Shown in pieces: positions 8,011 to 25,145 of a stretch of DNA of 32,000 nt. Under the pieces are notes generated by a model. That model was not told the origin of the DNA. It made no database searches and was given only the letters and a program-made list of their open reading frames with translations. The first letter of the stretch is position 1. Every line of letters begins with the position of its first letter. A program made the position numbers and the translations under genes. Source of the DNA: Rickettsiales bacterium (GTDB lineage Bacteria; Pseudomonadota; Alphaproteobacteria; Rs-D84); NCBI GenBank assembly GCA_031260805.1, contig JAISKV010000002.1, positions 8,333 to 40,332 on the forward strand, given 5' to 3'.

Positions 8011-8343
8011 TCATGCTTCATACGGCCTTGGTGGCGGTTCGGAAACAACCGCTTTGGCGGCCCTGAAACAATTCGTTGTGCCGCACAGCGGCAGCAGGGA
8101 ATACTTTTTGTTCACTTCGCGGTCCAGAATTTTCTTTGCATTTGCCGGCGCGCGCATTCGTACAAAAACCCAGCCTGCATTTTCCAGCAATCTAATGCCT
8201 GTCTTGTTCAGGCGAATCTTTTTGTTCCCGTCCGGCCCGATATGATACATGTATCCGCGGTAAACAACGGCGCAATGCCGCCATCGCCGCAGGACCAGCC
8301 GCAGCAAAATCATATTTGTGTTTGGTGTGAATCCAATCAGCAT
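8011..8343 (-). CDS. Hypothetical protein
   Basis: A 110-aa ORF with no clear Shine-Dalgarno sequence and no recognisable family. It looks more protein-like than the overlapping plus-strand ORF. Confidence 0.3.
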   Translation of the reverse strand: MLIGFTPNTNMILLRLVLRRWRHCAVVYRGYMYHIGPDGNKKIRLNKTGIRLLENAGWVFVRMRAPANAKKILDREVNKKYSLLPLCGTTNCFRAAKAVVSEPPPRPYEA

Positions 8344-8418
8344 GATAAATATTTATGATTTATGAAATATGATTTATGAAAAGTATTTCCATAACTCATA
8401 AATCAGAAATCATAAACC
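8343..8418. repeat. Heptamer-armed hairpin, TGATTTA-type arm versus TCATAAA-type arm
   Basis: Period-7 arrays sit on both sides of a 16-nt loop. The 10-bp perfect stem core pairs tgatttatga (8370-8379) with tcataaatca (8396-8405). Confidence 0.7.
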
Positions 8419-8420
8419 CC

Positions 8421-8774
8421 TTAGCGTTCAATCCAATCAGACATGACGGACGCCATGGCCGCCATGGCTTCGCGCCACAGGACGGCCGCGCGGTTTTCAG
8501 CAAAAATATGCTGGTGCGGGGCGCGCTTTATGTCGCCGAATTTTTTAATAACCGCCAGATGATCGTCGCGCAATTTGCCGCACAGATACGCGCGCGTTAT
8601 TCGCGATTCAACATCTATCAGACTGCACGGGCGGCCTGAAAAATGCTTGTCCCCACAGAATCCGGTGCGCGTGGCCCGATTGTGCAGGAACCAGAACCAA
8701 ATTTCTTCGGCATCCCGAAATTTCCTGATGTTTAGCGCGATGTTTCCCACACTATTTGTTGCATAGTTTTTCAT
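8421..8774 (-). CDS. Hypothetical protein, possibly a phage/plasmid-type small regulator
   Basis: A strong AAGGAGAG Shine-Dalgarno sequence precedes the ATG at 8774. The 117-aa product begins MKNYATNSVGNIALNIRKFRDAEEIWFWFL. The family was not recognised. Confidence 0.5.
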   Translation of the reverse strand: MKNYATNSVGNIALNIRKFRDAEEIWFWFLHNRATRTGFCGDKHFSGRPCSLIDVESRITRAYLCGKLRDDHLAVIKKFGDIKRAPHQHIFAENRAAVLWREAMAAMASVMSDWIER

Positions 8775-8958
8775 TTTCTCTCTCCTTTTGTGTTTTTTCC
8801 AAATCCAACCGCATTGCGATAGGATAAAAAGCATATAAGAATATTTACTAGAATAAATACATAAATACAACCATGACTAGAATTATGAACACAAAAATAA
8901 GCCCTCGCGGCGATGAGCGGGGCCAGTCCACCTTCCCTTTTTGAGGTGGCCACTGTTT

Positions 8959-9074
8959 AAGTTATTAATTATTAGTTATTAATTATTATACCATGGTGCG
9001 TGTTGTGAAAATTCCGCCACAACAAACAAAGGGATAATAACTAATAACTAATAACTAATAATTAATAACTATTA
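8959..9074. repeat. TAATAAC-armed MITE/RPE-like element, copy 3 (diverged core)
   Basis: GTTATTA/ATTATTA arrays, a core 35/42 identical to copy 1, then a (TAATAAC)n array. Confidence 0.85.
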
Positions 9075-9100
9075 AAAAACGCGGCTACGCCGCGTTTTTT
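9074..9100. terminator. Bidirectional rho-independent terminator
   Basis: Sequence AAAAAACGCGGC-TAC-GCCGCGTTTTTT. The T-run overlaps the stop codon of the 9099 gene. Confidence 0.8.
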
Positions 9101-9812
9101 AATACCGTGTTGTTGTTATGGATTTATGCAGAAATTCGTTATCCTTGCCCGATTGTTTCGGCGTGATTTTCGCGCTTTTTAATTTCTGGGCTATGTTTTT
9201 ATGATTTTCGTTAAACCATTCCTGGGCCGCCGCTGATTCATCCGCCACAGTCATCGTTTTCGGCACGGCAAACTGCCATTCATCATAATCAATTTTGCCG
9301 TCATCCGATGCAAAAGATTTATCCCCCAGTCCGATTTTAATGGTTCCCAGATAATACGCGTTGCCGGCCTTGGGCATAGCGCCAACATCAAACGAAGGAT
9401 TTGACAGCGTCGTATAGTAAAAATGATCCGTGTTGGACAGCCAGAAAGCCTTGTGCTGTGCGAAAAAACGCAAATTGCGAATTTCAGGCTTGGCATCAAC
9501 CGGGATTTCAATTGCAAAAAACTTATTTGTTTCTATGTCGCCGTATGTGTAATCATCCAATTGATCGTCGTCCAGGTTCTGGGCCGCGTCCGCCGGCGGC
9601 ATCAGCACGGAGAATTGCGTGAATTTCTTGTCGGAATCTTCCGCCCGCTCCCAATCGTCATTTATCGCAGGATCCAGATCCACGCGCGCGACAAACACGG
9701 CGTACCCGTCGTGCGGATTTGCCCCCGGACTCAGTTGTGAACGCGGCCCCCCGCAAGCACAAAGCGCAAAAAGCGCAGAACAAAGAGCAACCGGCAATAT
9801 TATTTTTTTCAT
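9099..9812 (-). CDS. Lipoprotein of unknown function
   Basis: MKKIILPVALCSALFALCACGG fits a signal peptide with a lipobox. An AAAGGTGA Shine-Dalgarno sequence favours the ATG at 9812 over the GTG at 9821. Confidence 0.7.
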   Translation of the reverse strand: MKKIILPVALCSALFALCACGGPRSQLSPGANPHDGYAVFVARVDLDPAINDDWERAEDSDKKFTQFSVLMPPADAAQNLDDDQLDDYTYGDIETNKFFAIEIPVDAKPEIRNLRFFAQHKAFWLSNTDHFYYTTLSNPSFDVGAMPKAGNAYYLGTIKIGLGDKSFASDDGKIDYDEWQFAVPKTMTVADESAAAQEWFNENHKNIAQKLKSAKITPKQSGKDNEFLHKSITTTRY

Positions 9813-9824
9813 TCTCATCACCTT

Positions 9825-10361
9825 TTAGAAGCGCCACTGAATTCCAGCGGTTATCGCATAAGTCCTGATATCGTAATCCAACCCCGTCATAGTATCATAT
9901 CTGAATGCCGCTGTTGCAGCCCAATCATCAGAAATCTGATATATCGCGCCCGCCTGGACATCCAATGCCATCCCGGCGCTGTCAGAATCCGGTATTGACG
10001 CAGCGATATATTTTCCGCCAAATCCCGCGCCGATAAAAGGCCGGACCAGCCATTCTTTCAGCCCAAAATCCGCATAGAAATTAATCAGCAACCCAAAGGG
10101 CGAAAATTCAACAAATTTGTTTGACACGGATTCATAGGAAAATTCCAACTCTGTCCGGAAATACAGCCAGCGCGCACTGCGATAATTTGATCCAAAAGAC
10201 AGCATGCCGCCGACACCGCCGAGATCATTGCCCAAATACCCTGCGGCCGCATCAACAACGCCGTTTAATTTCAGTTCCAAATAATTGCCTTTCATATTCC
10301 CGGCATTTGCAGACGCGGCGGTCGCGATAATTAACAGGAAAGTTATAAACAATTTTTTCAT
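9825..10361 (-). CDS. Small outer-membrane beta-barrel protein, OmpW/OmpA-barrel-like
   Basis: The signal peptide is MKKLFITFLLIIATAASANA. The protein shows alternating amphipathic strands and ends in GIQWRF. Confidence 0.8.
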   Translation of the reverse strand: MKKLFITFLLIIATAASANAGNMKGNYLELKLNGVVDAAAGYLGNDLGGVGGMLSFGSNYRSARWLYFRTELEFSYESVSNKFVEFSPFGLLINFYADFGLKEWLVRPFIGAGFGGKYIAASIPDSDSAGMALDVQAGAIYQISDDWAATAAFRYDTMTGLDYDIRTYAITAGIQWRF

Positions 10362-10485
10362 GCGGGAATTATTGTATAAAAAATGCGGCGACGCAAGAAA
10401 AATTTATTAGAGTTGGAGTTGGATGGCCAGTCCCCAAAAAGATAGGAAATAGCCACGAGTCCCGAGTACGAATAACGAATAACAA

Positions 10486-10513
10486 AAAAACGGCTTTACG
10501 GCCGTTTTTTTTT
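10486..10513. terminator. Bidirectional rho-independent terminator
   Basis: An A7 run, the CGGC / GCCG stem, then a T9 run that overlaps the stop codon of the 10512 gene. Confidence 0.6.
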
Positions 10514-12512
10514 ACGGTGTCGGTGTCGTCGGACGCTCCCATTCGCGGACCGCTTCAACCCCTGCGGTTTTCAAGCAGTTTTCACGCAGGCTGGCGGAAT
10601 TTGTTCCAGCCGCGCTGCTGTCCGTCACAGGCTTTAATATCTCGCTCAGCGTTACTACATTGCGGCAAGTGCTGGTATTCTTCTCAACATCGTAAGCGCA
10701 TGTTTCGGCATCCGCGTTATTCACCACCATCTGGACCGGATTTGTCGCCGGGCTGCACACCATGGTCTCAAAGCACGACGGCGACTGCGACACCTGGGCG
10801 CAGTAAGTTTTGATGCGCGCATCCATCCATGTTGTTCCGTTTGATTGGTACATTTGCGTATAGCAATCGTACAGGTCGGATATGCACTGGCCGAAATTCT
10901 CGCTGGCAGATTGATAATCGGTTAACTTCTGCGCGTCCGCTTCCTGCTTGAATTCCAATCTCTTTTGCTGCAAGGCCTGGGCGACCGCTGTGTTTTGATA
11001 AGAAATCGTCTGCGCCTGGGCTTTCAATTCTTCACCGTACAAATCACAGTCGGCATTCGCGTCCAGAACATATTTCTGCATGACTGACAGCCGCGCCTTG
11101 GCCACCGGATAGCGCAGCGTGGCGTACGGATCGCTGGTCCCGATTGATGTCCCGCTGTAATTCGCGCGCCCGGTCTGGGCATTCACGGCAGTCGTGTATC
11201 CAAAGCATGCGGCGGTTGATGTCGTGCTGGTCTGTTCGCGCAACGGCTCAAAAGTAATGCTCTTGCCATCGCTGCCGGCGGACACTGTGCTGGTATAGTT
11301 ATACGGCTTGTTGCTGGTGCAAGCCTCGTAAATTCCGTTAAAGCAAGAATCCAACACCCGTCCGCAAACATTATTCTGCGCATAGGCGAACAATTGATAT
11401 CCCCATTTTTTCGCCAACTGATCTTCACTGGTCGTGGTCAGTCCCGAAATCCCGGATATGGTATTGACATTCCCAACCAGGCTGTTGTACGCGTCCGTCC
11501 AAGAACTGGATTCAGTGCTGTACAATGTGTTTGTCGCATTCTGGACAGAATTTATGTACTCGTTCAATTGCGACATGATATCGCTGCCGGATCCGTTCAG
11601 ATCAGACAGGGTAAAGCCCAATTCGCCATTGCAATAACTGGGCGCGGTCTTATAGCCCGTGCATTGCGCGGTTCCTGTTATCTGAATATTATTCTCGCAC
11701 CATTTGTCCAGCGTCCCCGCCTGCTTTGCATTCTGATACGCGACGCAGTTCATTGTTTTTTCCGCGTCTGTCAGGCTGAACGCGCTGGATAATTCCTTGC
11801 CTTTGCTGGCGATGAACAGCGACAGTTCACCGGCCACTCTTAACAATTGTTCCTTGGCCGTGTTCAAGGCCTGCTCTGACTGAATAAAGTCTGTCGCGCG
11901 CCCGGCGCAGGTGCAGCGGCGCGCGCCCGGTTTGCGCACCGCGCAGATTTCATCCATACAGGTGTAATAACTGGTCAGACAGTTGCTGTACGCATCCGCG
12001 GAAATCAATCCGGTGTTCGGATCAATAATATTCTCGGTAATTATGCTGCCCAGGCGCAACGCGTTTGTTTGCGTGATGTTTGTGCCGGTTGGCGCGCGCA
12101 TTGCGGATCCGGTCAGCGACACCCGCGCGGGGGATGGCGTCATCATTTCGCCAGACACCGCGGTCCGCGCGGCGACGCCGCGCGGCACGCCGCTGCGCGC
12201 GGCGACGCCGCGGGCGGCAATCGGCTGGGTCGCGCGGGAAGAAACACCACGCTTTGCAACAGCCGCGGTCGGCGCCGCGACAGTGCCGCGCGCCACATTT
12301 GCAGCGCGCGCAGATTGGTTGCGCCGTGAAACTGAATTTGCTGCCGCGGCATCACCGGCGGCCGCAGTTGAAATAAATACAGGCTGCTGCACAGGATCGG
12401 CAAACACAGCGCGCATCGACAATGCGGTAAACCCGATAAAAAACGCACCGGCCAGCATGAACAAAGTCCCGGCCATCTGCATCAGCATATGGTTCCATTT
12501 GCGATTCTGCAT
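10512..12512 (-). CDS. Large secreted or membrane-anchored cysteine-rich protein of unknown function
   Basis: A GGAAGGTG Shine-Dalgarno sequence precedes the ATG at 12512. The protein has an N-terminal hydrophobic helix, an Arg/Ala-rich stretch (RGVAARSGVPRGVAART) and a roughly 520-aa region with 22 Cys. Confidence 0.7.
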   Translation of the reverse strand: MQNRKWNHMLMQMAGTLFMLAGAFFIGFTALSMRAVFADPVQQPVFISTAAAGDAAAANSVSRRNQSARAANVARGTVAAPTAAVAKRGVSSRATQPIAARGVAARSGVPRGVAARTAVSGEMMTPSPARVSLTGSAMRAPTGTNITQTNALRLGSIITENIIDPNTGLISADAYSNCLTSYYTCMDEICAVRKPGARRCTCAGRATDFIQSEQALNTAKEQLLRVAGELSLFIASKGKELSSAFSLTDAEKTMNCVAYQNAKQAGTLDKWCENNIQITGTAQCTGYKTAPSYCNGELGFTLSDLNGSGSDIMSQLNEYINSVQNATNTLYSTESSSWTDAYNSLVGNVNTISGISGLTTTSEDQLAKKWGYQLFAYAQNNVCGRVLDSCFNGIYEACTSNKPYNYTSTVSAGSDGKSITFEPLREQTSTTSTAACFGYTTAVNAQTGRANYSGTSIGTSDPYATLRYPVAKARLSVMQKYVLDANADCDLYGEELKAQAQTISYQNTAVAQALQQKRLEFKQEADAQKLTDYQSASENFGQCISDLYDCYTQMYQSNGTTWMDARIKTYCAQVSQSPSCFETMVCSPATNPVQMVVNNADAETCAYDVEKNTSTCRNVVTLSEILKPVTDSSAAGTNSASLRENCLKTAGVEAVREWERPTTPTP

Positions 12513-12576
12513 GAAAAACACCTTCCCTTTTCACCGAATTATACGAAATATGCGATTTTTTTGCAAGAGGTTAATT

Positions 12577-12648
12577 GTGAAAGGTGTAAGTGTAGGTGTA
12601 GGTGCAGGTCATCTCTATCTACACATTCACTTTCACCTGCACCTGTAC
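12577..12648. repeat. Short-unit-armed hairpin, GTGNAG units versus CTNCAC units
   Basis: The left arm gtgaaaggtgtaagtgtaggtgtaggtgcaggt and the right arm ctacacattcactttcacctgcacctgtac form an imperfect inverted repeat. Confidence 0.65.
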
Positions 12649-12651
12649 TAT

Positions 12652-12680
12652 AAAAAAACGCGGCTGCGCCGCGTTTTTTT
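12652..12680. terminator. Bidirectional rho-independent terminator
   Basis: Sequence AAAAAAACGCGGC-TGC-GCCGCGTTTTTTT. The T-run overlaps the stop codon of the 12679 gene. Confidence 0.8.
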
Positions 12681-13359
12681 ATAAAATCACCTGACCGCCG
12701 AGCCTTGCATTTGACGGCAGCGGGCCAAAACTGGACCGCGGCGCGACACGGATATTTCCCGTTATCGTGAATTCACCGCAAAAGCGGACCAGCCCCAGAT
12801 TCCGAATTATCAAGTCCCCGTCAACAACAATCCCGCAAGGCAGCGTGTACTTGTGCATGTTTTGCAGAATCAGGTTGCCTGAAATCTTGTCGCATTGGCC
12901 CAAACGGTTGCGCGATCCAAATTCTTCGCCATCAATGATAACATCGCCGCCCAGTTGTTTCGGCGCATCGACAACGATCGGGGCAACCGGTTCCGACTTT
13001 TCAGACGCGCGGCGCGCGATAACAGCCTGGCGCAATTCCGCATCATCTTTCGGCGCAGCATTATTATCCGGCATGATGAAAGGATCCGTTTGCGCAGTCG
13101 CAGTATTGAAAATCGCGCTGCCATTGGTTCCGGATTCTATTTCGCGCTTGTCATGAAAATGCCCCAGCAAAATCGTGAAAATAATAATTATAATTAACAG
13201 CAGGCCAAGATTCAACCATAAAGATACCGGCCGGCCCTGCACCCAATTCACAATAGCCGCCCATTTGTTTTTCAGCCAATTCGCTGCATTTGACGACTGG
13301 CTTTGACCGGAATCACCAAGTTTTCGTGCCGCCGCATTAAATTTTGTTTTTGTTGCCAT
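12679..13359 (-). CDS. Single-pass membrane protein with a repetitive, possibly beta-solenoid C-terminal domain
   Basis: The start is taken at MATKTKFNAAARKLG. The TM helix is LWLNLGLLLIIIIIFTILLG. The C-terminus reads GDVIIDGEEF...ISGNLILQN...VVDGDLIIRN...FTITGNIRV. Confidence 0.6.
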   Translation of the reverse strand: MATKTKFNAAARKLGDSGQSQSSNAANWLKNKWAAIVNWVQGRPVSLWLNLGLLLIIIIIFTILLGHFHDKREIESGTNGSAIFNTATAQTDPFIMPDNNAAPKDDAELRQAVIARRASEKSEPVAPIVVDAPKQLGGDVIIDGEEFGSRNRLGQCDKISGNLILQNMHKYTLPCGIVVDGDLIIRNLGLVRFCGEFTITGNIRVAPRSSFGPLPSNARLGGQVIL

Positions 13360-13426
13360 AACACTCTCGCATTTTGTTGTTTTGTACAATTATAATACAA
13401 TTATCATTTTTGTCAAGTGATTAATT

Positions 13427-13554
13427 ATAAAGTGAAAAGTGGAAAGTTAAAAGTTAAAATGTGGCTGGTCGCGCTTTGCGCGATACATTAATCGATTGAT
13501 GTGAGCGAAGCGAACGCATTATTTTCACTTTCCACTTTCAACTTTTCACTTTAT
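13427..13554. repeat. Heptamer-armed hairpin, AGTGAAA-type arm versus TTTCACT-type arm
   Basis: The 34-nt arms have 4 mismatches and enclose a roughly 55-nt loop that contains the smaller hairpin tcgcgc-ttt-gcgcga. Confidence 0.85.
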
Positions 13555-13582
13555 AAAAAAACGCGGCTGGACCGCGTTTTTT
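13554..13582. terminator. Bidirectional rho-independent terminator
   Basis: Sequence AAAAAAACGCGGC-TGGA-CCGCGTTTTTT. The T-run overlaps the stop codon of the 13581 gene. Confidence 0.75.
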
Positions 13583-14165
13583 AGATTATGCATTTCAATG
13601 CAGCGCCTGAATTTTTCAGCATCAGCCATCCCATGCGGTAATCCGTCGCATAAATAGTTATCAGGAATATCAGCAATATAACACAGATTGCCAATGCGCG
13701 GCCGCGCGACGCCTTCATGCAATATACCGCGATATTGTACAGCAAGAACAGCACATACGCGTCAATAACTATGCTGACAGTCATCAAACTGGTGCAATTC
13801 CATGCCAGCGCGTTCAGCACCAGCATTATCGGATACACGAAAAATACCGAAGCCAGACCTGCAACCGCAATCTCCCAATCGCGCTGGCCGCCGGAAATTT
13901 CCGTAATCAGCATCATGACGCCGCCCAGCAGAAACAGCAGCGCGACCGCGATAACCGGCACGACGATTAATTGCAGGAATACAGACGACAGCGTCAGCGT
14001 CGCGCCGCCCAGCAACCGTATGCCCAGCACCAGCGCGCCGCCCAGCATGCCATAGATAAATGCCCGGAACATGGACCCTTCTAGATCGCCGTCAGCGACG
14101 ATTCTGGAAAAAGCGATGCGCGGATTGATGATTATTTGCCAGATATTTTTAAGCCATTGCAGCAT
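13581..14165 (-). CDS. Polytopic membrane protein, possibly Yip1-domain-like
   Basis: A 194-aa protein with about 5 TM helices. The N-terminus NIWQIIINPRIAFSRI resembles Yip1-family starts. Confidence 0.45.
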   Translation of the reverse strand: MLQWLKNIWQIIINPRIAFSRIVADGDLEGSMFRAFIYGMLGGALVLGIRLLGGATLTLSSVFLQLIVVPVIAVALLFLLGGVMMLITEISGGQRDWEIAVAGLASVFFVYPIMLVLNALAWNCTSLMTVSIVIDAYVLFLLYNIAVYCMKASRGRALAICVILLIFLITIYATDYRMGWLMLKNSGAALKCII

Positions 14166-14249
14166 TGCGCGCCCCCACAGTTTGATTATTTGATTATCGT
14201 CAAATAATATTCTATAATCTTTCGCATAAATTACAAGAGAATTCGCAAA

Positions 14250-15566
14250 ATGAAAATAGTCATCGCAGGACGCCCAAACACCGGCAAGTCAACCCTGTTC
14301 AATCAATTGACCGGAACGCGCGACGCGCTGGTTCACAACCGGCCGGGCGTGACGCGCGATGCGATTGCCGGGAAACTTATCGGAACCGACCATGATGTCT
14401 TTGACACCGCGGGGCTGGAACGGAACACCACGGAAATCGGGAAACTGGCGACGGATATTGCTTTTAACTTCATACGCGACGCGGATTTGGTCTTGTTCGT
14501 TGTTGACGCGCGCATCGGGATTACAGGCGAAGACATTGAGTGGGCGAAATTGGTCCGCCGCGCGAATAAAAAAATAATCCTGCTGGCGAATAAATCGGAA
14601 TCATTCAAGAAACTGGCCGACCAGTCCGAATTTTACAAACTTGGCCTGGGCGCGCCGAACCCGATAAGCGCAGAGCACAAGACCGGATTTGATGTTATAT
14701 ATGACTTTATTGAAAAACATTACGCCGACAACCCGGAACCTCAAACCTCAAACCTCAAACCTTTGCGAATATCAATCATGGGCCAACCGAATGTGGGCAA
14801 GTCTACGCTGGTAAACACAATCATCGGGGAAAATCGCGTTATCGTCCGGGACGAGCCGGGGATAACGCGCGACACAATCAAACTGCCGACGCGATTTTAC
14901 GGCCGCGATATAATCTTGGCGGACACGGCGGGATTGCGGCGCAAGGCGAACATTACCGATGCGGTTGAAACTCTGTCAGCGTTGAAATCTTTGGATATTA
15001 TTGAAAAATCAGATGTTATAATTCTGGTGGTTGACGCGACGCGCGATATTGAAAACCAGGCGCTGGGCATAGCGGGCCGCGTTTATGACGGCGGCAAGAT
15101 TTTATGCGTCGCGCTGAACAAGTGGGATCTGGTGGAAGATAAAGAAGACCGGTTGCTGAAACTGAAACACGCGTTCAACAATTCTTTTCATCAGATTATA
15201 AAGCCTTTGATTCTGGCGATTTCCGCCGAAACCGGAACCGGTGTCCGAAACATGTTCAAGCGGGTTTACGAATTGTGGGATATCTCCCAGACACGCGCGC
15301 CGACCAGCCTGGTCAACCGCGTCGTTGAAAAATTGGTGAAATTGCGCCAGCCGCCAATGTCGCGGGTCGGGCGCGGGATGAAGATAAAATTCGCGACCCA
15401 AGTGGCCGAGCATCCGATAAAAATAAAAATCAATGTCGGCGGCGCGTCCGATATCCCGGAAAGTTATACGCGGTACCTGCGCCGCGGAATTGCAAAAGAA
15501 TTGCACTGGGAACAGTTGCCGATAATTATAGAGTATTCCAAAAACGAAAACCCGTTTGAGAGTTAG
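14250..15566 (+). CDS. der: Ribosome-associated GTPase Der/EngA
   Basis: Two G domains (GRPNTGKSTLFN..DTAG..NKSE and GQPNVGKSTLVN..DTAG..NKWD) are followed by a KH-like C-terminus. Confidence 0.95.
   Translation: MKIVIAGRPNTGKSTLFNQLTGTRDALVHNRPGVTRDAIAGKLIGTDHDVFDTAGLERNTTEIGKLATDIAFNFIRDADLVLFVVDARIGITGEDIEWAKLVRRANKKIILLANKSESFKKLADQSEFYKLGLGAPNPISAEHKTGFDVIYDFIEKHYADNPEPQTSNLKPLRISIMGQPNVGKSTLVNTIIGENRVIVRDEPGITRDTIKLPTRFYGRDIILADTAGLRRKANITDAVETLSALKSLDIIEKSDVIILVVDATRDIENQALGIAGRVYDGGKILCVALNKWDLVEDKEDRLLKLKHAFNNSFHQIIKPLILAISAETGTGVRNMFKRVYELWDISQTRAPTSLVNRVVEKLVKLRQPPMSRVGRGMKIKFATQVAEHPIKIKINVGGASDIPESYTRYLRRGIAKELHWEQLPIIIEYSKNENPFES
14737..14762 (+). repeat. (AACCTCA)3.7 heptamer array in frame within the der inter-domain linker
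   Basis: aacctcaaacctcaaacctcaaacct encodes EPQTSNLKP. The same unit forms the right arm of the hairpin at 25032-25058. Confidence 0.9.
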
Positions 15567-15599
15567 AGTTGGTGTTCAGAGTTCAGAGTTTAGAGTTCA
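15558..15599. repeat. Single-arm GAGTTCA-type heptamer array
   Basis: Reads gagagtt agagttg gtgttca gagttca gagttta gagttca. It begins in the last codons of der and supplies its TAG stop. The related array at 7046-7080 uses the same unit. Confidence 0.8.
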
Positions 15600-15755
15600 A
15601 CTATTTTTTCTTTCCGCCTGTATCACCAATTAATTATCATACAGCCATGATACCAGCCAGAATATCGCCAGAAACGAGAATATCTGCCATACGCCGGACC
15701 ATAAAAGAGTATTTCTTGAAAACATATTGAGTTAGTAGTTGGTAATTGGTAGTAC

Positions 15756-15847
15756 AATTAAGAATTAAGAAAGAAGAATTATGTCTTACACTCTGTCTAT
15801 TACAATGAACAAAATAATTCTTAATTCTTCTTTCTTAATTCTTAATT
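15756..15847. repeat. Heptamer-armed hairpin, AAGAATT arm versus AATTCTT arm
   Basis: The 27-nt left arm is complementary to the right arm apart from one extra 7-mer unit. The loop is 31 nt. Confidence 0.9.
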
Positions 15848-15908
15848 AAATCCTGTAAACCACCTCGGCCTACGGCCACCCCTCCATGGGAGGGGAACTG
15901 GCCGCTGA

Positions 15909-17162: not shown

Positions 17163-17176
17163 TGGAAACCCTTATT

Positions 17177-17551: not shown

Positions 17552-17566
17552 TAAATGCTTCCTTTG

Positions 17567-18499
17567 TTAGTTATCTAAAATATCCCGCAACAGACGCATG
17601 TCGTCCGGCAGCGGCGCTTTGATCTTAATCTTAATTCCTTTGACCGGATGTGTCAATTCCAAATATTGCGCATGCAGCATTTGTTCGTTATTATTTTTCA
17701 CAAAGTCCAATAATTCCGAATCCTTGATCGTCCCGATTTTATCCCGGCCGTACACAGGATCGCAAATAATCGGAAATCCGTGCGCTGACAAATGAACGCG
17801 GATCTGATGCGTGCGGCCAGTGAACAAGGTGCACTTCAACTCGCTGGCGTTCTTGCGCGGCCATGCGGCCATAACATCGGCATGCGTCTTGGCCGGCCGG
17901 CCGCCGATTTTTACAATTGTCATTTTCTGCCGGTTTTTCGCGCTGCGCCCGATGTTTCCGGTTATATCCGCGCCCTCCCATTGCGGAACACCCCAGCACA
18001 GGCAGACATACTTGCGCACCAGATCATGCGCGGCAAAAGTCTTGGTCAAGGCGCGGTGCGCCGCGTCGGTCTTGGCAAAAATAACCGCGCCGCTGGTCCC
18101 CTTGTCAATGCGATGCACGACGCCCGGACGATTTGCATCGCCCAGCGCGGACAAACCGCAATGCGCCAGGACCATCTGCACCAGCGTGCCGTCCGGATTC
18201 CCGGCTGCCGGATACATGACTACCCCGCGCGGCTTGTTAACCGCGATAATGTCTTCGTCTTCATACAGAATGTCCAGGTCCGATGCCTGGGGGTCAAGGG
18301 TCGTGGTCTGTTGTTCCGGAATTTCAATACGGAACACATCGCCATCATGAACCTTGCCCGCGGGCTTGTATTTCCCGTCTATCATTTTCTGGATTTCGCT
18401 GCGCGAAAACTCTGGCATTCTGGACGCCAGAAATTTATCAACCCGCAGCCCCGCGTCTGATTCGCACGCATTAAAAATTCTTTTATTTTCCGAATTCAT
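17567..18499 (-). CDS. rluD: 23S rRNA pseudouridine synthase, RluD subfamily of the RluA family
   Basis: An S4-like N-terminus (LRVDKFLA) is followed by the catalytic motif HRIDKGTSG and GRTHQIRVHL. Confidence 0.9.
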   Translation of the reverse strand: MNSENKRIFNACESDAGLRVDKFLASRMPEFSRSEIQKMIDGKYKPAGKVHDGDVFRIEIPEQQTTTLDPQASDLDILYEDEDIIAVNKPRGVVMYPAAGNPDGTLVQMVLAHCGLSALGDANRPGVVHRIDKGTSGAVIFAKTDAAHRALTKTFAAHDLVRKYVCLCWGVPQWEGADITGNIGRSAKNRQKMTIVKIGGRPAKTHADVMAAWPRKNASELKCTLFTGRTHQIRVHLSAHGFPIICDPVYGRDKIGTIKDSELLDFVKNNNEQMLHAQYLELTHPVKGIKIKIKAPLPDDMRLLRDILDN

Positions 18500-18929
18500 C
18501 CCAATCCGGCCCGCGTTCGCAGTTTGATAAGTTCACAATCATGTCCCGGCCGATTTTGCAGGTCAGTATTCCGGTCGTCGTATTCTGGTATGTTTCGGAT
18601 CCTGCTTCGCGCCAGGCCAGTTTAATCTCGGTCGGTTTGGCCAGGCACACGATTCTGAAATACGCATCCCGGTCCTTGACCGGATCAATCCACGCGCGCA
18701 CATCTTCCGACTGGCCATAGCATGGAAAGCCATCCAGATAGTACAATTCCCATCCCAATTTTCCGATATTTTGCCCGCCGCGCTTTACAGGAATTTGATA
18801 TTCGCGCAGATGCAGCCCGCTGACCCGCTCCCAATCGCTGCTGGTGGAAAAAATGCTGGGGCGCGGCGCCGCCAAAAGTGAAACGGGAAACGAGAAAAGT
18901 AAAAATATTGAAAAAACCATTTTTTTCAT
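18483..18929 (-). CDS. Secreted/periplasmic protein of unknown function
   Basis: The signal peptide is MKKMVFSIFLLFSFPVSLLA. The gene overlaps both neighbours, by ATGA at its start and by 17 nt with rluD. Confidence 0.6.
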   Translation of the reverse strand: MKKMVFSIFLLFSFPVSLLAAPRPSIFSTSSDWERVSGLHLREYQIPVKRGGQNIGKLGWELYYLDGFPCYGQSEDVRAWIDPVKDRDAYFRIVCLAKPTEIKLAWREAGSETYQNTTTGILTCKIGRDMIVNLSNCERGPDWDEFGK

Positions 18930-19390
18930 TTTGCAAACCCCACGGTTATTTTCTTTGCGTCCGAAACGGTCAACTCTGATGAAAAATACACCACGGCGCC
19001 CGAATCAATAACAGCCGCGTTCGGAATTACGCGCGCAGTCTTGATAACCGCGCCATTGCCGTCCCGAATGCTGACCATCAGATCCGGCGCGCCGAACAAC
19101 TTTTCCGTATTATTCACTATCCTGCCGGAAACAATTATGCCGCCGGCCGTCGCGACCGGCCTGTCCGTTATAATTTCCAAAGCGTCTTTCTTTGCGTCCG
19201 TCCGCAGAATCGCAACCGCTGAAAACAAGACGGCTGCCAGCAGCGCGGTTATCGCCGCCAGCAGTTTCAGCCACCTGCCCCCGCCGCTGCCGGACCCCGC
19301 GCGCCATACCGCGCCGCAGCAGGCGCATTTGACATTGCCGCCGCCGGGAATTTTATACTGCGTTTTGCAAAAAGGACACTTTATAACCAT
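18926..19390 (-). CDS. MJ0042-type zinc-ribbon membrane protein with a DUF3426-like periplasmic domain
   Basis: MVIKCPFCKTQYKIPGGGNVKCACCGAVW supplies CxxC...CxxC. It is followed by one TM helix and a beta-rich C-terminal domain. Confidence 0.7.
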   Translation of the reverse strand: MVIKCPFCKTQYKIPGGGNVKCACCGAVWRAGSGSGGGRWLKLLAAITALLAAVLFSAVAILRTDAKKDALEIITDRPVATAGGIIVSGRIVNNTEKLFGAPDLMVSIRDGNGAVIKTARVIPNAAVIDSGAVVYFSSELTVSDAKKITVGFAK

Positions 19391-19399
19391 GCGCCTATG

Positions 19400-20689: not shown

Positions 20690-21920
20690 TTTGTTCCAAA
20701 TCTCTCCATCCGGATGCAGTTATTTTATCAAACCGCGCCGTATCCACCCTCAACAAGCCGCCCATTTCACCGCCCGATTGACGCAGGACCAGCGATTTTA
20801 ATTTCGGATAACTGCTGGTCGGGAAAGACCAGTTGCCCAGTTTTATCGGCGTGTACGCGCTGGACGCAATAAGTTCGCTGGAAACCACCATGCCGAATCC
20901 GGCGGCAAAATACAACTCTGTCGCGAACAAGTACGGCGTGTAAACCGAATGCACGGACATCCCGGCGATTCCTGAAATCGTGCGCGCGGCTCCGGACTTT
21001 ACCGACAGATTGCCCGACACATTCAACTTTTCAGAAACAACCGTTTTATCAGAAATAACGCTGCCGCCGGAAGACCAATTTCCGTTTAATCCCGTGCCTT
21101 GGAACTTCTTCGCATAAATGTTGCGCAGCCCCGTCGTGTCGCCGCGCACGCGAATTATGCCGATAGACGCGCCGTCGACCCCGATATCCGCGCCGTTGTT
21201 AAAGTACGCGATGTCCGCAATCAAATTTTCGGCCGCCGCGAAATTCGCGGTTGCAGATGCCGATTCCAAGACCTTGCCCGCCGCCGCCGCGATGTCGTAC
21301 AAGTCAAATCCGCCCAGGTTGAAATCGCGCAGCATATTGTTCTGGCCCCTGCTGGCCGTGCGGTACAGGTATTTTTCATTGTCGTTGTTCTTCAAGTCCA
21401 GACGCACGCGGTACACTATGTCGCCGCTGGCGAAATCATCACTCTGCACGCCCCACGAAGAATACGAATCGTACGCGATTCCGTTTTCATTCACCAGCCC
21501 TGCGTCAAATCCGATATTCTTTACAATATCCGCATTGCGCATCAGCGACGAATCATTTACATGAAACGCTGAATACGCATCTATGATTTCGGAATCCGTA
21601 ATCGTGTACTTGTCTATGTAAACCGCGTACGGCGCGGCCGCGTTTCCGGACAGCCCCGCGATATCCGCATCATCCAGCCTGAATTGAATATTTTTGTTCC
21701 AACCGGACGCATTCATCCTGATAAAATTCAGCATCGGATCGCGAAAGTCCGCAATCTGCTTTGCAATCGCAATGTCCGCAATCCGGCGCGTCATTTCCGA
21801 AATATGAATGTACGCCAGCGGCGCCAGCGCCGCGACCACGGCCATGGCCAGCAATGTTTCCAGCAAAGATTCGCCGCGCTGCTGATTTATCCGCAATTTG
21901 ATTTCCCCTGCACCAGGCAC
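20670..21920 (-). CDS. Large prepilin-like protein B
   Basis: ...INQQRG is followed by ESLLETLLAMAVVAALAPL. An internal motif reads NMLRDFNLGGFDLYDI. The track start is a GTG; a TTG at 21896 preceded by AGGGGA would give an 8-aa leader. Confidence 0.55.
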   Translation of the reverse strand: MPGAGEIKLRINQQRGESLLETLLAMAVVAALAPLAYIHISEMTRRIADIAIAKQIADFRDPMLNFIRMNASGWNKNIQFRLDDADIAGLSGNAAAPYAVYIDKYTITDSEIIDAYSAFHVNDSSLMRNADIVKNIGFDAGLVNENGIAYDSYSSWGVQSDDFASGDIVYRVRLDLKNNDNEKYLYRTASRGQNNMLRDFNLGGFDLYDIAAAAGKVLESASATANFAAAENLIADIAYFNNGADIGVDGASIGIIRVRGDTTGLRNIYAKKFQGTGLNGNWSSGGSVISDKTVVSEKLNVSGNLSVKSGAARTISGIAGMSVHSVYTPYLFATELYFAAGFGMVVSSELIASSAYTPIKLGNWSFPTSSYPKLKSLVLRQSGGEMGGLLRVDTARFDKITASGWRDLEQNEPIAQ

Positions 21921-23317
21921 TTTTTTATATTTATCCGCTGTTCCAGCCGCTGCCAGTACACATATTGGCAGATTATATTCTGCGCCACGGATTTCGCGTT
22001 ATACGATATGTCGGTCAAATCATAAATCACATTTTTGCAGTCCGTTGTTTTTCCCGTGCTGTCGGACGCGCTGTGAATTATCTTCAATGCGGAAGAGTCC
22101 AGATTTTCCAAGATAACATCATCAAACACTGAAACGCCGGCCGGCCGTATGTCCATGATAACCGGGCCTGTGCCGCCGGCCGACAAGGAACTGGAAATCT
22201 GATCGCGCAGCGTTATGTGGGCGGCGGCGACATAGTCCGCCTCGATCCCGGTCTTGGCACTGTAAGACATCCCGTCGTCGGATACAAAAACCTCCTGACC
22301 GCGCGCGGCGTTTATCAGTCCGCCGATTTCCAACGCAGAAACGCCCAGGCTGATATTTTCGGTTGCCATGCTGCCGCCGATATTCCACTTTTCCGGCCCG
22401 TAAAATCCTGCGCGCCCGGCCGACATGGATAAATCGTAAATGGAAAAAACATCCGTTTCTATCGCACCGCTGCTGCCGAATTGCGATATCGTCGCGGCGG
22501 TCATGCGCTGCGCGACAGTGCCGTTTTTTAGAATCCCCAGCGCGCTGCCGTCTGTATCAGACAAGAAAATTGCGCGGTTCAGAGACAAATGCGCAATCTT
22601 ATTTTTAATCTTTCTGCCTTCTTCCGTACCGGCCAGCGTCAGCGAAGAAATCATCGCGCTGTCAGCGGATAAATTCGCCGCCCACATAGTCTTGATATTT
22701 CTGACATCAAATTCAGACATGTCCAGATCCGCCAGAAACGCATCGTCGGCCGGATTTTTGGAATATGACTGAACGCGCTCTGTAAACTCGTTTTCTAGCG
22801 GGATGCGGACCAGGAAAGTCTTTGGCGACGGACGCCATCCGAACGCCGATACATCGGCCGCCCATCCGCCGCCGAACGCGGTTATGTCAAAGCCTGTGCC
22901 GGACGCGGCCCAGAATCCGACCCGCGCCGCCAGTTCGCGCAATTTTAATGGCGATAAATTCCCGCGTTCTATGACCAGATACGCGTCAATCGCGCCGGGA
23001 TCGCGCAAGACGACCAGCGATATTTTCTGGTCCAGCGGGGTGTTTCCACGAAATCCAATCGGCAATCCGAACGGTTCCAGCGCGTCTGACATGGCCAATC
23101 CGGACAAAGTGGTTATGCCGAATGGCAGCAATTCCGATTCTTCCCGAATGTATAACTTTGCCGCATTTGCAGCCAAATTTATAGTGTCCGCTGTCGCGCC
23201 AAATTCAACCCGCGCGGAATAATCGGCGATTTTCCGCGTCATCATCGGCATAAACGCAACCATCAGCGATACGGCCAGCAGCGCTTGCAGTAAAAAATTT
23301 CCAGATTGGCTTCTCAT
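21887..23317 (-). CDS. Large prepilin-like protein A
   Basis: The preferred start MRSQSG is followed by NFLLQALLAVSLMVAFMPMM, with Gln at +5. An internal motif reads LADLDMSEFDVRNI. The track ORF extends to 23383, across a divergent promoter. Confidence 0.5.
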   Translation of the reverse strand: MRSQSGNFLLQALLAVSLMVAFMPMMTRKIADYSARVEFGATADTINLAANAAKLYIREESELLPFGITTLSGLAMSDALEPFGLPIGFRGNTPLDQKISLVVLRDPGAIDAYLVIERGNLSPLKLRELAARVGFWAASGTGFDITAFGGGWAADVSAFGWRPSPKTFLVRIPLENEFTERVQSYSKNPADDAFLADLDMSEFDVRNIKTMWAANLSADSAMISSLTLAGTEEGRKIKNKIAHLSLNRAIFLSDTDGSALGILKNGTVAQRMTAATISQFGSSGAIETDVFSIYDLSMSAGRAGFYGPEKWNIGGSMATENISLGVSALEIGGLINAARGQEVFVSDDGMSYSAKTGIEADYVAAAHITLRDQISSSLSAGGTGPVIMDIRPAGVSVFDDVILENLDSSALKIIHSASDSTGKTTDCKNVIYDLTDISYNAKSVAQNIICQYVYWQRLEQRINIKKCLVQGKSNCG

Positions 23318-23350
23318 TCCCAGAGCAATCATAGAAAATATAAAAAATAG

Positions 23351-23379
23351 TTGCAATCTGTTTTTACTGGGATTATACT
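23351..23379 (+). promoter_or_regulatory. Candidate promoter of the 23427 gene
   Basis: TTGCAA, a 17-nt spacer, then TATACT. Confidence 0.4.
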
Positions 23380-23426
23380 GCAAGGGTACTTTTATTATTT
23401 ACCATACTTTTACAATCGGATAATTC

Positions 23427-23723
23427 ATGCAATATAAGAAAAATCAAATGTCAACAGGACTGATGATCCAACGGTGCCATCGCTGGCGTCAAAAGCGCAA
23501 ACAATACCTGGACAGCGCGCGCCAGACAAATGACGAGGTAGAACGGGAGCGCCTGCTGCAAATGGCCGAGCATTACGGGCGCATAGTGTCGGACGAGCAA
23601 GGCGTCATAGACAACCGCCGCGACCCCAAAGATAATAATAAAAACGCAGCCGCGGAAGACAATTATTCGTCAATGGACGATGATGATGAAATTCCGGACT
23701 TTCGGGAAGTAATAGGAAAATAA
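23427..23723 (+). CDS. Small acidic-tailed protein, DUF4167-like
   Basis: QKRKQYLDSARQTNDEVERERLLQMAEHYGRIV resembles the alphaproteobacterial DUF4167 pattern (...A(E/Q)HY.R). The C-terminus is acidic. Confidence 0.45.
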   Translation: MQYKKNQMSTGLMIQRCHRWRQKRKQYLDSARQTNDEVERERLLQMAEHYGRIVSDEQGVIDNRRDPKDNNKNAAAEDNYSSMDDDDEIPDFREVIGK

Positions 23724-23734
23724 ATGCGCCATTT

Positions 23735-23843
23735 TAGTTGTTAGTTATTAATTATTAGTTATTATTCTTTTGTTTGTGGTGGCGGAATTATCGCAGCGCG
23801 CACAATGGTATAATAACTAATAATTAACAATTAATAACTATTA
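23735..23843. repeat. TAATAAC-armed MITE/RPE-like element, copy 4 (inverted relative to copy 1)
   Basis: The reverse complement of 23767-23808 matches 1125-1166 at 41 of 42 positions. It is flanked by GTTATTA / TAATAAC arrays. Confidence 0.9.
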
Positions 23844-23870
23844 AAAAATCGGGCGATGCCCGATTTTTTA
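23844..23870. terminator. Bidirectional rho-independent terminator
   Basis: Sequence AAAAAATCGGGC-GAT-GCCCGATTTTTT. The T-run overlaps the mreB stop codon. Confidence 0.8.
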
Positions 23871-24917
23871 ATACAGCGTGTGCAGGACATGCTTGTACTT
23901 GTCAATATTATACAGGATATTTCCGCTGCCGTTGGCGACGCAGTACAACGGCTCGTCCACAACGAACACAGGCAGATTTGTCGCCTGGCGAATCGCGACA
24001 TCCAAATCGCGCAGCAAACTGCCCCCGCCGGTCATCGCAATTCCGTAATCCACGATATCCGCGGTTAACTCTGGCGGCGTTATCTCCAAAGTGCTCTGAA
24101 TCAAACTGATAATCCGCGCGACCGTCTGCGTCATTGCATCCGCCGTGTTTGATTCGGTAATTTCAATTTCACGCGGCATGCCGGAAATCAAATCGCGCCC
24201 CTTGACCTTGACCCGCAGTTCCGCCGCCTTGTCCCGCGGCGGCAGCGCGCATCCGATTTCTTTCTTTACATTTTCCGCGGTTACTTCGCCAATCAGCAGA
24301 TTTTTATTCTTGCGCACCCATTCAATAATATCGCGGTTCATTTGATCCCCGGCGGTTCGTATAGCATTGGAATACACAACGCCGCCCAGCGATATGACCG
24401 ATATTTCCGTGGTCCCGCCGCCAATATCCAAAACCATTGACCCGACCGGCTTTTCAATGGGCAGCCCCGCGCCAATCGCCGCCGCGGTTGATTCTTCAAC
24501 AATGTAAACCTTGCGCGCGCCTGCGCTGTCGGCCGCTTCCTGAATTGCGCGCCGTTCCACCGGCGTAGCGCACGACGGCACGCAGATAACAATCAGCGGC
24601 GCGGTCAGCATGCTGCGCTTGTGAATCTTGCGAATGAAATGACGGATCATTTCTTCGGCAACCTCAAAATCCGCGATGACACCGTCTTGCAGCGGGCGCA
24701 CCGCGCGAATTGTGCCTGGCGTGCGGCCCAGCATTCCGCGCGCTTCATCGCCGACGGCCAGGATTTCCTTTTTTCCAATCAAACGGTTTTCCAAAATTGC
24801 GACCACGGACGGCTCGTTCAACACAATGCCCTGATCCTTGACATAAATTAGAGTATTCGCCGTGCCCAGGTCAATTGCAATATCCGCGGAAAAGAATTTC
24901 ATCAGCCAGTTGTACAT
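23868..24917 (-). CDS. mreB: Rod-shape-determining actin homologue MreB
   Basis: Matches FSADIAIDLGTANTLIYV, DIGGGTTE and the actin-fold motifs. The start is taken at MYNWLMKFF. The track start at 25022 is an extension into the heptamer hairpin. Confidence 0.93.
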   Translation of the reverse strand: MYNWLMKFFSADIAIDLGTANTLIYVKDQGIVLNEPSVVAILENRLIGKKEILAVGDEARGMLGRTPGTIRAVRPLQDGVIADFEVAEEMIRHFIRKIHKRSMLTAPLIVICVPSCATPVERRAIQEAADSAGARKVYIVEESTAAAIGAGLPIEKPVGSMVLDIGGGTTEISVISLGGVVYSNAIRTAGDQMNRDIIEWVRKNKNLLIGEVTAENVKKEIGCALPPRDKAAELRVKVKGRDLISGMPREIEITESNTADAMTQTVARIISLIQSTLEITPPELTADIVDYGIAMTGGGSLLRDLDVAIRQATNLPVFVVDEPLYCVANGSGNILYNIDKYKHVLHTLY

Positions 24918-24988
24918 TTCGCCATTCCATTTTTTATCGCGTTCAGTATAAACCACGATTTTTATAAAATCAAGAATATATCCGAAAA

Positions 24989-25058
24989 AGGTTTGAGGTT
25001 TGAGGTTTGAGGTTGTCGGCACAATTGCCTTAAACCTAAAACCTCATACCTCAAACCT
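24989..25058. repeat. Heptamer-armed hairpin, GAGGTTT arm versus AAACCTC arm
   Basis: The 26-nt arms have about 2 mismatches and enclose a 17-nt loop. The hairpin lies in the divergent mreB / rplM spacer. Confidence 0.9.
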
Positions 25059-25145
25059 ATGGTATTATATTACCACACAAGAAAAACTTGACTTTTGCGC
25101 GGCCTTGGGCAATAATACCCCGGCAAATTAAACAAAGGTTAAATT

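Follow-up and report, generated by a model that had tools for sequence, protein, structure and literature searches.

Among long simple sequence repeats (SSRs), the heptanucleotide class outnumbers all others in the majority of prokaryotic genomes that have been surveyed, and such repeats have been proposed to arise through slippage of the polymerase (Mrazek 2007, as cited in PMC4679880). Marine Beggiatoaceae, cyanobacteria and a few Bacteroidetes have abundant arrays of TAACTGA, often located just upstream of start codons (MacGregor 2015, PMC4679880); in the Beggiatoaceae, 169 sets are direct repeats and one is inverted (PMC4679880). Genomes of Xanthomonas each carry about 185 GGGAATC arrays, most often of four units (Rehm et al. 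2015, PMC4692102). These are intergenic in 89–93% of cases and lie nearer to the 3′ end of the upstream open reading frame (ORF), and 70–75 convergent inverted pairs per genome are capable of forming a stem-loop or a cruciform; the type of pair is mostly kept between species while array length changes (PMC4692102). A protein that reads such units is known from pSM19035: the operator/centromere of its ribbon-helix-helix (RHH) protein omega consists of contiguous WATCACW heptads, direct or inverted, over promoters, with 7–10 contiguous heptads bound (minimum 4) at one dimer per 7 bp (PMC9499535). Here we describe tandem arrays of 7-nt units, many of them arranged as inverted pairs that form hairpins, in 32,000 nucleotides of a Rickettsiales bacterium, an uncultured alphaproteobacterium (assembly GCA_031260805.1, contig JAISKV010000002.1, positions 8,333 to 40,332; this whole stretch is referred to as the window). 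With about even confidence, we read them as lineage-specific, proliferating repeat families resembling REPINs (inverted doublets of repetitive extragenic palindromic, REP, sequences) and MITEs (miniature inverted-repeat transposable elements), the arms of which evolve by slippage in 7-nt steps and by arm-to-arm copying, and which are tolerated mainly in the gap from a terminator to the next promoter and where coding DNA is under weak constraint.

The window is a housekeeping stretch of the chromosome, with mraY-ftsW-murG, rplU-rpmA-rpmH, der, mreB, rplM-rpsI and comEC identified from its proteins. These 32 kb of the source genome were compared with approx. 20 kb of each of ten relatives, eight of which were found by tblastn with Der (66–69% identity) and two by exact-protein look-ups; the look-up with protein P0041 returned only the contig of relative L006. 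The nearest non-identical Der is 70% identical to that of the window. Two of the relatives are rich in arrays, many of them in inverted pairs: L006 (metagenome-assembled genome (MAG) EPI_MAG_00286), with 8–14 arrays in 21 kb, and L013 (MAG Gx481_bin12), with 10–25 arrays in 19 kb. The Der proteins of both are about 68% identical to that of the window. The remaining eight (L003, L005 and L007–L012, together about 167 kb) contain a single period-7 array, a T-rich run, and are referred to below as array-free. An assembly artefact was rejected as the source of the arrays, because the sequence is identical in an independent Logan assembly and the same architecture recurs in two unrelated MAG projects.

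The analysis confirmed that period 7 is a specific property of the intergenic DNA of the window. A looser scan detected 18–22 period-7 arrays, nearly all of them intergenic. At a threshold of 18 matches out of 21 in a lag scan, period 7 covered 263 of the 2792 intergenic nucleotides, compared with 0 in 50 dinucleotide shuffles, while period 6 covered 29 nt and periods 3–5, 8–13 and 15 covered none. The view of a preliminary description of this DNA that period 7, inverted arms and a unique loop form a real, non-random and recurrent architecture is borne out by the lag scan, the shuffles and the folding. The arrays show head-to-tail units in the 5–11-nt range beyond chance, as heptanucleotide long SSRs do. 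The units are AT-rich, with one to three G residues and no GGG tracts, and fall into at least nine heptamer classes within the 32 kb. Tandem Repeats Finder gave unit-to-unit matches of 78–100%; perfect repetition over 3.7 units is seen in three arrays, whereas most are imperfect (78–91% matches) and contain variant units. The idea that the arrays serve to place stop codons in all three frames was dropped, because any AT-rich heptamer behaves alike.

Among the 29 arrays of the window, 18 are members of inverted pairs and 11 are unpaired. The pairs form nine long, AT-rich hairpins, and such hairpins occupy the majority of the longer intergenic spacers; five more are present in each of L006 and L013. 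An inverted-repeat search gave arms of 31–39 nt that are 84–91% complementary and separated by loops of 3–91 nt; four of the pairs are at 8352–8382/8386–8416 (31 nt, 84%), 13425–13460/13521–13556 (36 nt, 89%, 60 nt apart), 15756–15788/15815–15847 (33 nt, 91%) and 24989–25021/25026–25058 (33 nt, 85%). Tandem Repeats Finder placed period-7 arrays in the corresponding arms (8351–8379/8390–8416, 13429–13459/13522–13552, 15756–15781/15815–15847 and 24989–25014/25028–25059) and at the elements with TAATAAC units (1095–1122, 6475–6551, 8957–9075 and 23734–23844), as well as a period-6 array at 12582–12609. Eight of the nine hairpins fold well below their dinucleotide shuffles (z −4.4 to −10.1, with none of 200 shuffles per locus as good); the ninth is an interrupted TAATAAC copy which, folded as 1094–1180, reaches only z = −1.6. 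The arm mismatches at 13425–13556 are, by eye, of the transversion type (G·A, U·C, A·C), and strand-specific RNA selection through G-U wobble was therefore dropped.

The five hairpins listed in the preliminary description, together with its TAATAAC elements, are present as described, except that the GAGGTTT hairpin has about five mismatches in 33 nt instead of two. Its statement that this is not a clustered regularly interspaced short palindromic repeat (CRISPR) array also holds, since the units are 7 nt long and contiguous and the arrays form inverted pairs. Covariance models of Rfam 15 gave no match at gathering score in the window, L006 or L013.

The arrays and hairpins of the window, with the terminators and promoters beside them, are as follows (a strand is given where one is assigned).

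1093–1253: hairpin element of the TAATAAC family, with an unannotated ORF on one side and mraY on the other; a conserved leader with a ribosome-binding site adjoins its 3′ arm.
6475–6553: TAATAAC-family hairpin in the rplU-rpmA spacer (−24.5 kcal/mol, z −7.1); the 3′ arm is followed by the leader ACGACGCAAGGAGTTAAAAAATG.
7013–7080, plus strand: bidirectional terminator after rpmH (7013–7048), directly followed by an unpaired GTTCAGR array (7040–7080).
7111–7139: promoter beyond the rpmH terminator and the GTTCAGR array.
8350–8418: GATTTAT/TCATAAA hairpin with a 3-nt loop (z −4.4).
8958–9104: TAATAAC-family hairpin (8958–9076) fused to a bidirectional terminator (9070–9104); z −7.1.
10405–10511, minus strand: terminator of a 669-aa gene (10484–10511) and then, in the minus-strand reading, a GTTATTC array (10465–10490).
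10405–10425: C-type hexamer array CAACTC (GAGTTG on the plus strand), 40 nt beyond the GTTATTC array and non-complementary to it.
12577–12683: GTGNAG/CTNCAC hairpin of period 6–7 (12577–12648) fused to a bidirectional terminator (12649–12683); z −4.75.
12566–12538, minus strand: promoter 10 nt beyond the GTGNAG hairpin.
13425–13582: AAAGTGA/TTTCACT hairpin (13425–13556) fused to the terminator of a Yip1-domain gene (13555–13582); −49.6 kcal/mol, z −6.4.
13416–13389, minus strand: promoter with a 12/12 consensus match beside the AAAGTGA hairpin.
14730–14765, plus strand: in-frame AACCTCA array (3.7 units) within der, where the variable linker that joins the two GTPase domains is encoded.
15559–15600, plus strand: unpaired GAGTTCA array containing the der stop codon.
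15729–15848: GTTGGTA array (15729–15755), then an AATTAAG/CTTAATT hairpin (15756–15848), in the convergent spacer after der; z −7.8.
15878–15908: CCCCTCC hairpin beyond the AATTAAG hairpin.
23732–23873: TAATAAC-family hairpin (23732–23846) fused to a bidirectional terminator (23839–23873) in a convergent spacer; −42 kcal/mol, z −8.3.
24986–25059: GAGGTTT/AAACCTC hairpin in the divergent spacer between mreB and rplM-rpsI; −42.7 kcal/mol, z −10.1.
24973–24945, minus strand, and 25088–25116, plus strand: promoters on either side of the GAGGTTT hairpin.
26144–26215, plus strand: terminator after rpsI (26144–26169), directly followed by the heptads GTTATCC GTTATTC GTACTCG GTACTCG.

The unpaired arrays include those at 7040–7080, 10405–10425, 10465–10490, 15559–15600, 15729–15755 and 26170–26215. 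The two arms at 10405–10490 no longer fold (z −1.3), and this locus looks like a decayed hairpin.

The elements belong to several dispersed families: the TAGT/ACTA type with a core, terminator-linked heptads, and the AATTAAG and GTGNNN types. REP-like repeats are defined by one conserved palindromic sequence of 20–40 nt in many copies; among the hairpins, only the TAATAAC family, with four copies and a conserved core, corresponds to this, the other five hairpins being single within the 32 kb. The TAATAAC copies at 1093, 8958 and 23732 have a core of approx. 50 nt in common (TATACCATTGTGCGCGCTGCGAYAATTCCGCCACCACAAACAAAAG), which at 23732 is inverted relative to the other two, and in the copy at 6475 the core has a 26-nt deletion. 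In the copy at 1093, a CCCCTCC hairpin of 40 nt has been inserted, with a 15-nt duplication (AAACAAAAGTATAAT) on its flanks. What follows the 3′ arm in this family is either a terminator or a conserved leader with a ribosome-binding site. A search for the core AATTCCGCCACNACAAACAAA gave no match in genome contigs and one chance coding match in metagenome contigs, in collections that do not include the source genome. As in MITEs, all of the hairpins have inverted ends, but a common core occurs only in the TAGT/ACTA-type family of each genome; the arms of this type are kept in all three genomes while the core differs, L006 and L013 each having their own core motif.

A second line of evidence for repetition comes from two terminators, one at 10484 on the minus strand and the other at 26144 on the plus strand. 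Their stems differ, whereas the sequence following the T-tract is the same (GTTATYCGTTATTCGTACTCGGKACTCGT), and they are homologous modules in which a terminator is followed by GTTATYCGTTATTCGTACTCGG. The preliminary description had held that each locus is built from unrelated sequence. This does not hold in view of the dispersed TAATAAC family, of these homologous terminator-plus-array modules and of heptamer classes (ACTAATN/TAGT-type, AATTAAG and ACGAATC-type) which turn up again, at positions that are not orthologous, in genomes whose Der proteins have diverged by about 30%.

Two further repeats were noted beside these families. A 53-nt module (74–83% identity) lies upstream of mraY, rpmA and rpmH, at 1240–1292, 6532–6584 and 6829–6881. 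It comprises a TAATAAC-type arm, then ATTAACGACG(C/A)AAGGAGTTAAAAA(A) and the ATG, the rpmH copy being a remnant; the module looks like a shared or portable 5′ leader with a ribosome-binding site. The other is a small dispersed, GC-rich hairpin, GGCCAGTTCCCCTCC-NNNN-GGAGGGGAACTGRCC, found at 1187–1222 and 15878–15908, as a variant at 8915–8955, as a fragment at 10430–10445, and in L013 at 4893–4915; one of the copies has inserted into a TAATAAC element. In both the window and L013, a CCCCTCC-type GC-rich hairpin lies near an AATTAAG hairpin.

Comparison of the arms shows how they change. Variant units are mirrored between the two arms (AAAGAAG at 15756–15847 and AATGAAG in L006 at 14063–14188, where the arms are 100% complementary over 29 nt), the arms at 15756–15847 differ by one whole unit, and a 14-nt higher-order periodicity is present in the arrays. 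The slippage and arm-to-arm copying that the preliminary description had suggested are visible in these mirrored variants and in the whole-unit difference.

The distribution of the elements among the relatives is patchy. In a Der tree, L006 is the sister of the array-free L003 (78% Der identity), and monophyly of the array-rich genomes was rejected as unsupported by this tree. L006 and L003 are syntenic, and orthologous spacers are lengthened by arrays or hairpins in L006.

NusA/IF2 spacer: 24 nt in L003, 87 nt in L006.
LptF/NusA spacer: 94 nt in L003, 295 nt in L006.
IF2/PQQ-repeat lipoprotein spacer: 50 nt in L003, 794 nt in L006.
Sigma factor/next gene spacer: −4 nt in L003, 53 nt in L006.

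The same is seen downstream of the Yip1-domain gene next to der. This spacer holds the AGTGAAA hairpin and a terminator in the window, an ACTA-type array and a terminator in L006, a TAGT-type hairpin followed by ACGAATC heptads and a terminator in L013, and a terminator only in L008 and L003. Four of the five orthologous spacers checked in array-free relatives contain a short terminator only. Where arrays are present, they enlarge spacers whose array-free counterparts consist of little more than a short terminator or a ribosome-binding site. The fact that sister and related genomes have the same spacers without arrays indicates that the elements are gains, or losses in the relatives, and are dispensable to the cell. 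In L013, a region of about 230 nt (5722–5954) contains a succession of heptamer arrays with at least five different units (GAGCACA, AGAGCGA, GGATGAT, GAGCATA and CTATCTC), a hotspot of array formation.

Arrays are also found within coding DNA. In each of the three array-rich genomes, a heptamer array lies in frame in the part of der that encodes the variable interdomain linker; the eight array-free relatives lack one there. The units differ from genome to genome (AACCTCA, CACGAAT and CCATCAT). The AACCTCA array in der of the window is of the same heptamer class as the GAGGTTT hairpin upstream of mreB. In L006, the hairpin at 14061–14191 (14076–14206 in L016) spans the junction of two genes. 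Translation of a PQQ-repeat lipoprotein starts at the inner end of the left arm, and the hydrophobic core of its signal peptide (FSFFILHFSFFILLAAC) is specified by the right arm, (TTTCATT)n. In L003, the orthologue is preceded by a spacer of 8 nt, and its signal peptide is of the ordinary kind. A further in-frame array, of ACGAATC, is present in rsmE of L013. Such a pattern would be expected if a mutational or proliferative pressure acted on the whole genome and selection filtered its products. A weak AAAAGTG-like array was also noted at 18874–18900, in the signal-peptide coding part of a 148-aa gene (18483–18929; MKKMVFSIFLLFSFPVSLLA...); its unit resembles that of the AGTGAAA hairpin at 13425.

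In the model that we favor, the arms would change fast, through replication slippage in a 7-nt register and through copying from arm to arm, either by inverted duplication or by template switching on the hairpin. Each locus would homogenise on its own variant of the unit, which would make the loci look unrelated, and whole elements would occasionally be copied to new sites. Selection would mostly determine where they are tolerated: in the untranscribed gap between terminator and promoter, in 5′ leaders, in protein linkers and in signal peptides. Putative effects on the cell (for instance, that read-through is blocked or promoters are insulated) would be secondary.

Several observations weigh against this model. 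No transposase that could account for dispersal was found among the window proteins, and 19 of the 20 hairpins have no direct repeat on their flanks, beyond chance expectation, that could be a target-site duplication. Only one hairpin, that at 8350–8418, has such a repeat (AATCCAATCAG[A]CATGA, about 17 nt, at 8323–8343 and 8427–8447); we observed that it duplicates an apparent minus-strand start-codon region, which suggests an insertion with duplication at the 5′ end of a gene. The evidence from the source genome itself is limited to the 32 kb, and exact-protein look-ups with Der, L13 and L27 returned only identical short contigs of the same run, or nothing. In addition, (i) five exact heptamer classes are common to different genomes, against 1.09 expected (P = 0.0055, from a hand-curated list of units), although genomes so diverged should share no neutral sequence, (ii) the window and L013 have in common a plan in which TNANTCG heptads come after the T-tract of a terminator, and (iii) across the three genomes, the 5′ arm contains more G than C in 17 of the 19 inverted pairs (one tie and one exception) and the 3′ arm more C than G in all 19. 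The excess is confined to exact sharing, the number of units common to genomes within one mismatch (12, against 11.7 expected) being not above chance. Taken together, the exact sharing, the T-tract/TNANTCG plan and the G/C polarity leave room for, and suggest, a sequence- or strand-specific factor beyond plain slippage. Only this G/C polarity holds; a purine-first, terminator-like A/T polarity was rejected, as the sign of A minus T in the 5′ arm is mixed.

The association of the hairpins with transcription signals has to be considered separately. On the transcribed strand, the commonest order is stop codon, bidirectional terminator, array or hairpin, sigma-70-like promoter and next gene. The bidirectional terminators consist of A6–7, a GC stem and T6–7, and the array or hairpin begins 0–4 nt past the T-tract. 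An array adjoins each of the five perfect bidirectional terminators of the window and also the two less perfect ones, at 10484 and 26144, and three hairpins end 10–16 nt upstream of good −35 boxes (promoters 13416–13389, 12566–12538 and 24973–24945). The stems are very stable, and complementarity is kept where the units vary. These features are consistent with the alternative that the hairpins are selected structural elements, DNA cruciforms or folds of read-through RNA, which back the terminators and insulate the next promoter while their sequence drifts, and which within operons act as RNase III or stability sites; the symmetric G-first polarity might, in addition, sequester C-rich, Rho-attracting RNA for either direction of transcription. 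We nevertheless consider this explanation unlikely. The sister genome and other relatives manage without hairpins at the same spacers, only one of four terminators in L006 and one or two of three in L013 abut arrays, 11 of the 29 window arrays are unpaired, and at least one hairpin (10405–10490) has decayed. The hairpins are also bound to no one gene context, as they occur within operon spacers (rplU-rpmA and ORF-mraY), in convergent and divergent spacers and in 5′ leaders, and arrays are found in coding DNA as well. The claim of the preliminary description that most hairpins abut a canonical terminator was overstated, since four of the nine do so, and the heptamer stems themselves (AT-rich, 22–36 bp, without a T-tract of their own) do not have the make-up of intrinsic terminators.

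The heptads could, alternatively, be sites for a protein, either one of the omega/ParB kind with one dimer per 7 bp or a transposase for which they form the terminal inverted repeats of a mobile element. The period of exactly 7, the presence of at least four units per arm (the minimum for omega; PMC9499535), the invariant orientation and the location of arrays just upstream of promoters would all agree with this. So would the TAGT/ACTA-type arms, which, like the terminal inverted repeats of MITEs, are kept across three deeply diverged genomes while the core differs, and the AATCACT and AATCACG arrays of L013, which fit or nearly fit WATCACW. However, the occurrence of at least nine heptamer classes in 32 kb would call for many proteins or for one that is nearly unspecific, and none of the window classes is WATCACW. 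The arms are split by loops of 3–91 nt and mirror each other base for base, neither of which is needed by a protein array; arrays in coding regions are hard to read as operators; and the window proteins include neither an RHH or partition protein nor a transposase. A rotation-aligned search for a motif common to the units was marginal (5.67 vs 5.12 bits, P = 0.03, with non-independent entries); derivation of all arrays from one ancestral unit was rejected and the search is not relied on. We regard binding of such a protein as quite unlikely to be what explains the arrays.

A broader proposal, which we also hold to be rather doubtful, is that a dedicated factor prone to gain and loss writes or maintains the arrays, be it a polymerase, primase or recombinase that would copy 7 nt at a time and fold back, or a heptad-reading protein or transposase. 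If this were true, it would account for the strict period, the nearly invariant G-first/C-second polarity, the recurring heptad classes and terminator-heptad modules, and the contrast between sister genomes, and the elements would take terminators and ribosome-binding-site leaders along with them, as mobile cassettes of expression signals.

A purely local origin, one of the readings offered in the preliminary description, in which slippage and fold-back copying act on the spot, without dispersal, and the loci are unrelated, appears very unlikely. It would agree with the unique loops of most window hairpins outside the TAATAAC family, which have no second copy within the 32 kb, and with the arrays of the der linker, which differ in the three genomes and look like independent or fully turned-over events. 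The TAATAAC family and the terminator-plus-GTTATTC modules are, however, present in several copies, and other genomes have these heptamer classes too, at loci that are not orthologous. In addition, De Bruijn assembly of the same sample gave contigs that break inside arrays, which would fit k-mers repeated elsewhere in the genome but is not conclusive: the Logan contigs of run SRR14710919 that match the window end or start in or beside arrays or hairpins (L001 corresponds to window positions 12650–15841 and L015 to about 23812–26195).

Although 7-bp promoter repeats are phase-variation switches in Haemophilus, and three of the arrays are perfect over 3.7 units, it is highly improbable that these are contingency loci (phase-variable SSRs switching neighbouring genes), as most of the arrays are imperfect, are paired as palindromes and flank the housekeeping genes rplU, rpmA, mreB, der and mraY.

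Some additional features of the window were recorded in the course of the analysis. A perfect (AG)20 repeat, long enough for slippage, is located at 5982–6021 in the AT-rich region upstream of rplU; enrichment of (AG)n in Rickettsiales and other blood-associated bacteria is reported in PMC4516964. A perfect 26-nt palindrome (TGTATAGCATACTAGTATGCTATACA) occurs twice (30449–30474 and 30835–30860), flanking a 108-aa gene (30465–30791) without a Pfam match; it is not heptamer-based, and the pair looks like operator sites. The 465-aa ORF listed from 26140 contains the rpsI terminator, the heptamer array and a GC hairpin within its first 240 nt, which give an implausible N-terminus on translation; the start is probably further on, near 26382. 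Accessory genes are interspersed among the housekeeping genes: the window encodes a Bro-N domain protein (7146–7964), ComEC (28492–30306) and an adhesin with YadA-head repeats (30987–32000), and a type IV secretion coupling protein (TraG/VirD4) is encoded near der in L003 (14230–16485) and L016 (7096–9261).

These elements bear on the question, raised in 2007, of why long SSRs of prokaryotes favor 7-nt units, and on the function of the inverted pairs of Xanthomonas. The clade constitutes a natural experiment, since it contains close genomes with many heptamer hairpins or none; L006 and L003, with their syntenic spacers, are an example, and a comparison of their gene content could reveal a driver or a suppressor of 7-nt array formation. 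The arrays also illustrate how repeat DNA can reshape both expression signals and proteins, as terminators and leaders are repeated together with arrays, and a signal peptide and the Der linker are array-encoded. Finally, they are relevant to the annotation and assembly of such MAGs, because contigs break at arrays and hairpins.

Among the described systems, REP sequences and REPINs are short intergenic palindromes, often located by terminators, and REPINs are inverted doublets that fold as hairpins and evolve as families within a genome, in all of which they are like the elements described here. The arms of REPs are single GC-rich imperfect palindromes, with one sequence per family and dependence on a RAYT transposase, whereas the arms found here are tandem heptamers, and no RAYT (IS200/IS605-like) transposase was found among the window proteins. 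Correia/NEMIS, ERIC and the Rickettsia palindromic elements are MITE-like: they are dispersed and non-autonomous, their ends are inverted and each family has its own core. Some of them carry promoters or terminators, and those of Rickettsia insert in frame into protein-coding genes; the terminal repeats of these elements are fixed in sequence, and most MITEs are flanked by target-site duplications. The elements of the window differ in that their ends are tandem heptads and in that nearly all of the hairpins lack a flanking duplication.

The resemblance to the parS/omega system of pSM19035 lies in the contiguous 7-bp units, their number, their direct and inverted orientation and the proximity to promoters. 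That system is plasmid-borne and has the single unit WATCACW, no loops and a cognate RHH gene, whereas the window has many units and looped palindromes on a chromosome.

The preliminary description had regarded the elements as an undescribed class. This part of its interpretation, which as a whole is partly supported, does not stand, because heptanucleotide SSRs are known to be over-represented in prokaryotes, cyanobacterial and Beggiatoaceae heptamers have been published (PMC4679880), and Xanthomonas has its convergent inverted pairs (PMC4692102). The period of 7, the intergenic location and the patchy phylogenetic distribution are shared with the prokaryotic, cyanobacterial and Beggiatoaceae heptamers, some of which lie upstream of start codons, including those of ribosomal-protein genes, with mixed heptamers in some genomes and indels in 7-nt steps; TAACTAA, the commonest unit of the window, is one base from TAACTGA. 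No hairpin architecture or link with terminators has been described for the Beggiatoaceae heptamers, unlike the window, where 18 of the 29 arrays are in inverted pairs. The Xanthomonas pairs are similar in that arrays of the same heptamer converge on opposite strands and in that the polarity is the same, the G-richer strand coming first (in 17 of 19 pairs here). They are built from essentially one G-rich unit (GGGAATC/GGGANTN, for which G-quadruplexes have been discussed), in contrast to the AT-rich classes without G-tracts found here, and lack the fusion to intrinsic terminators, the core-bearing family and the in-frame coding arrays. What is new in the elements described here is the presence of many AT-rich unit classes in one genome, the fusion with terminators and leaders, a core-bearing family, arrays in frame within genes, and presence or absence among sister lineages.

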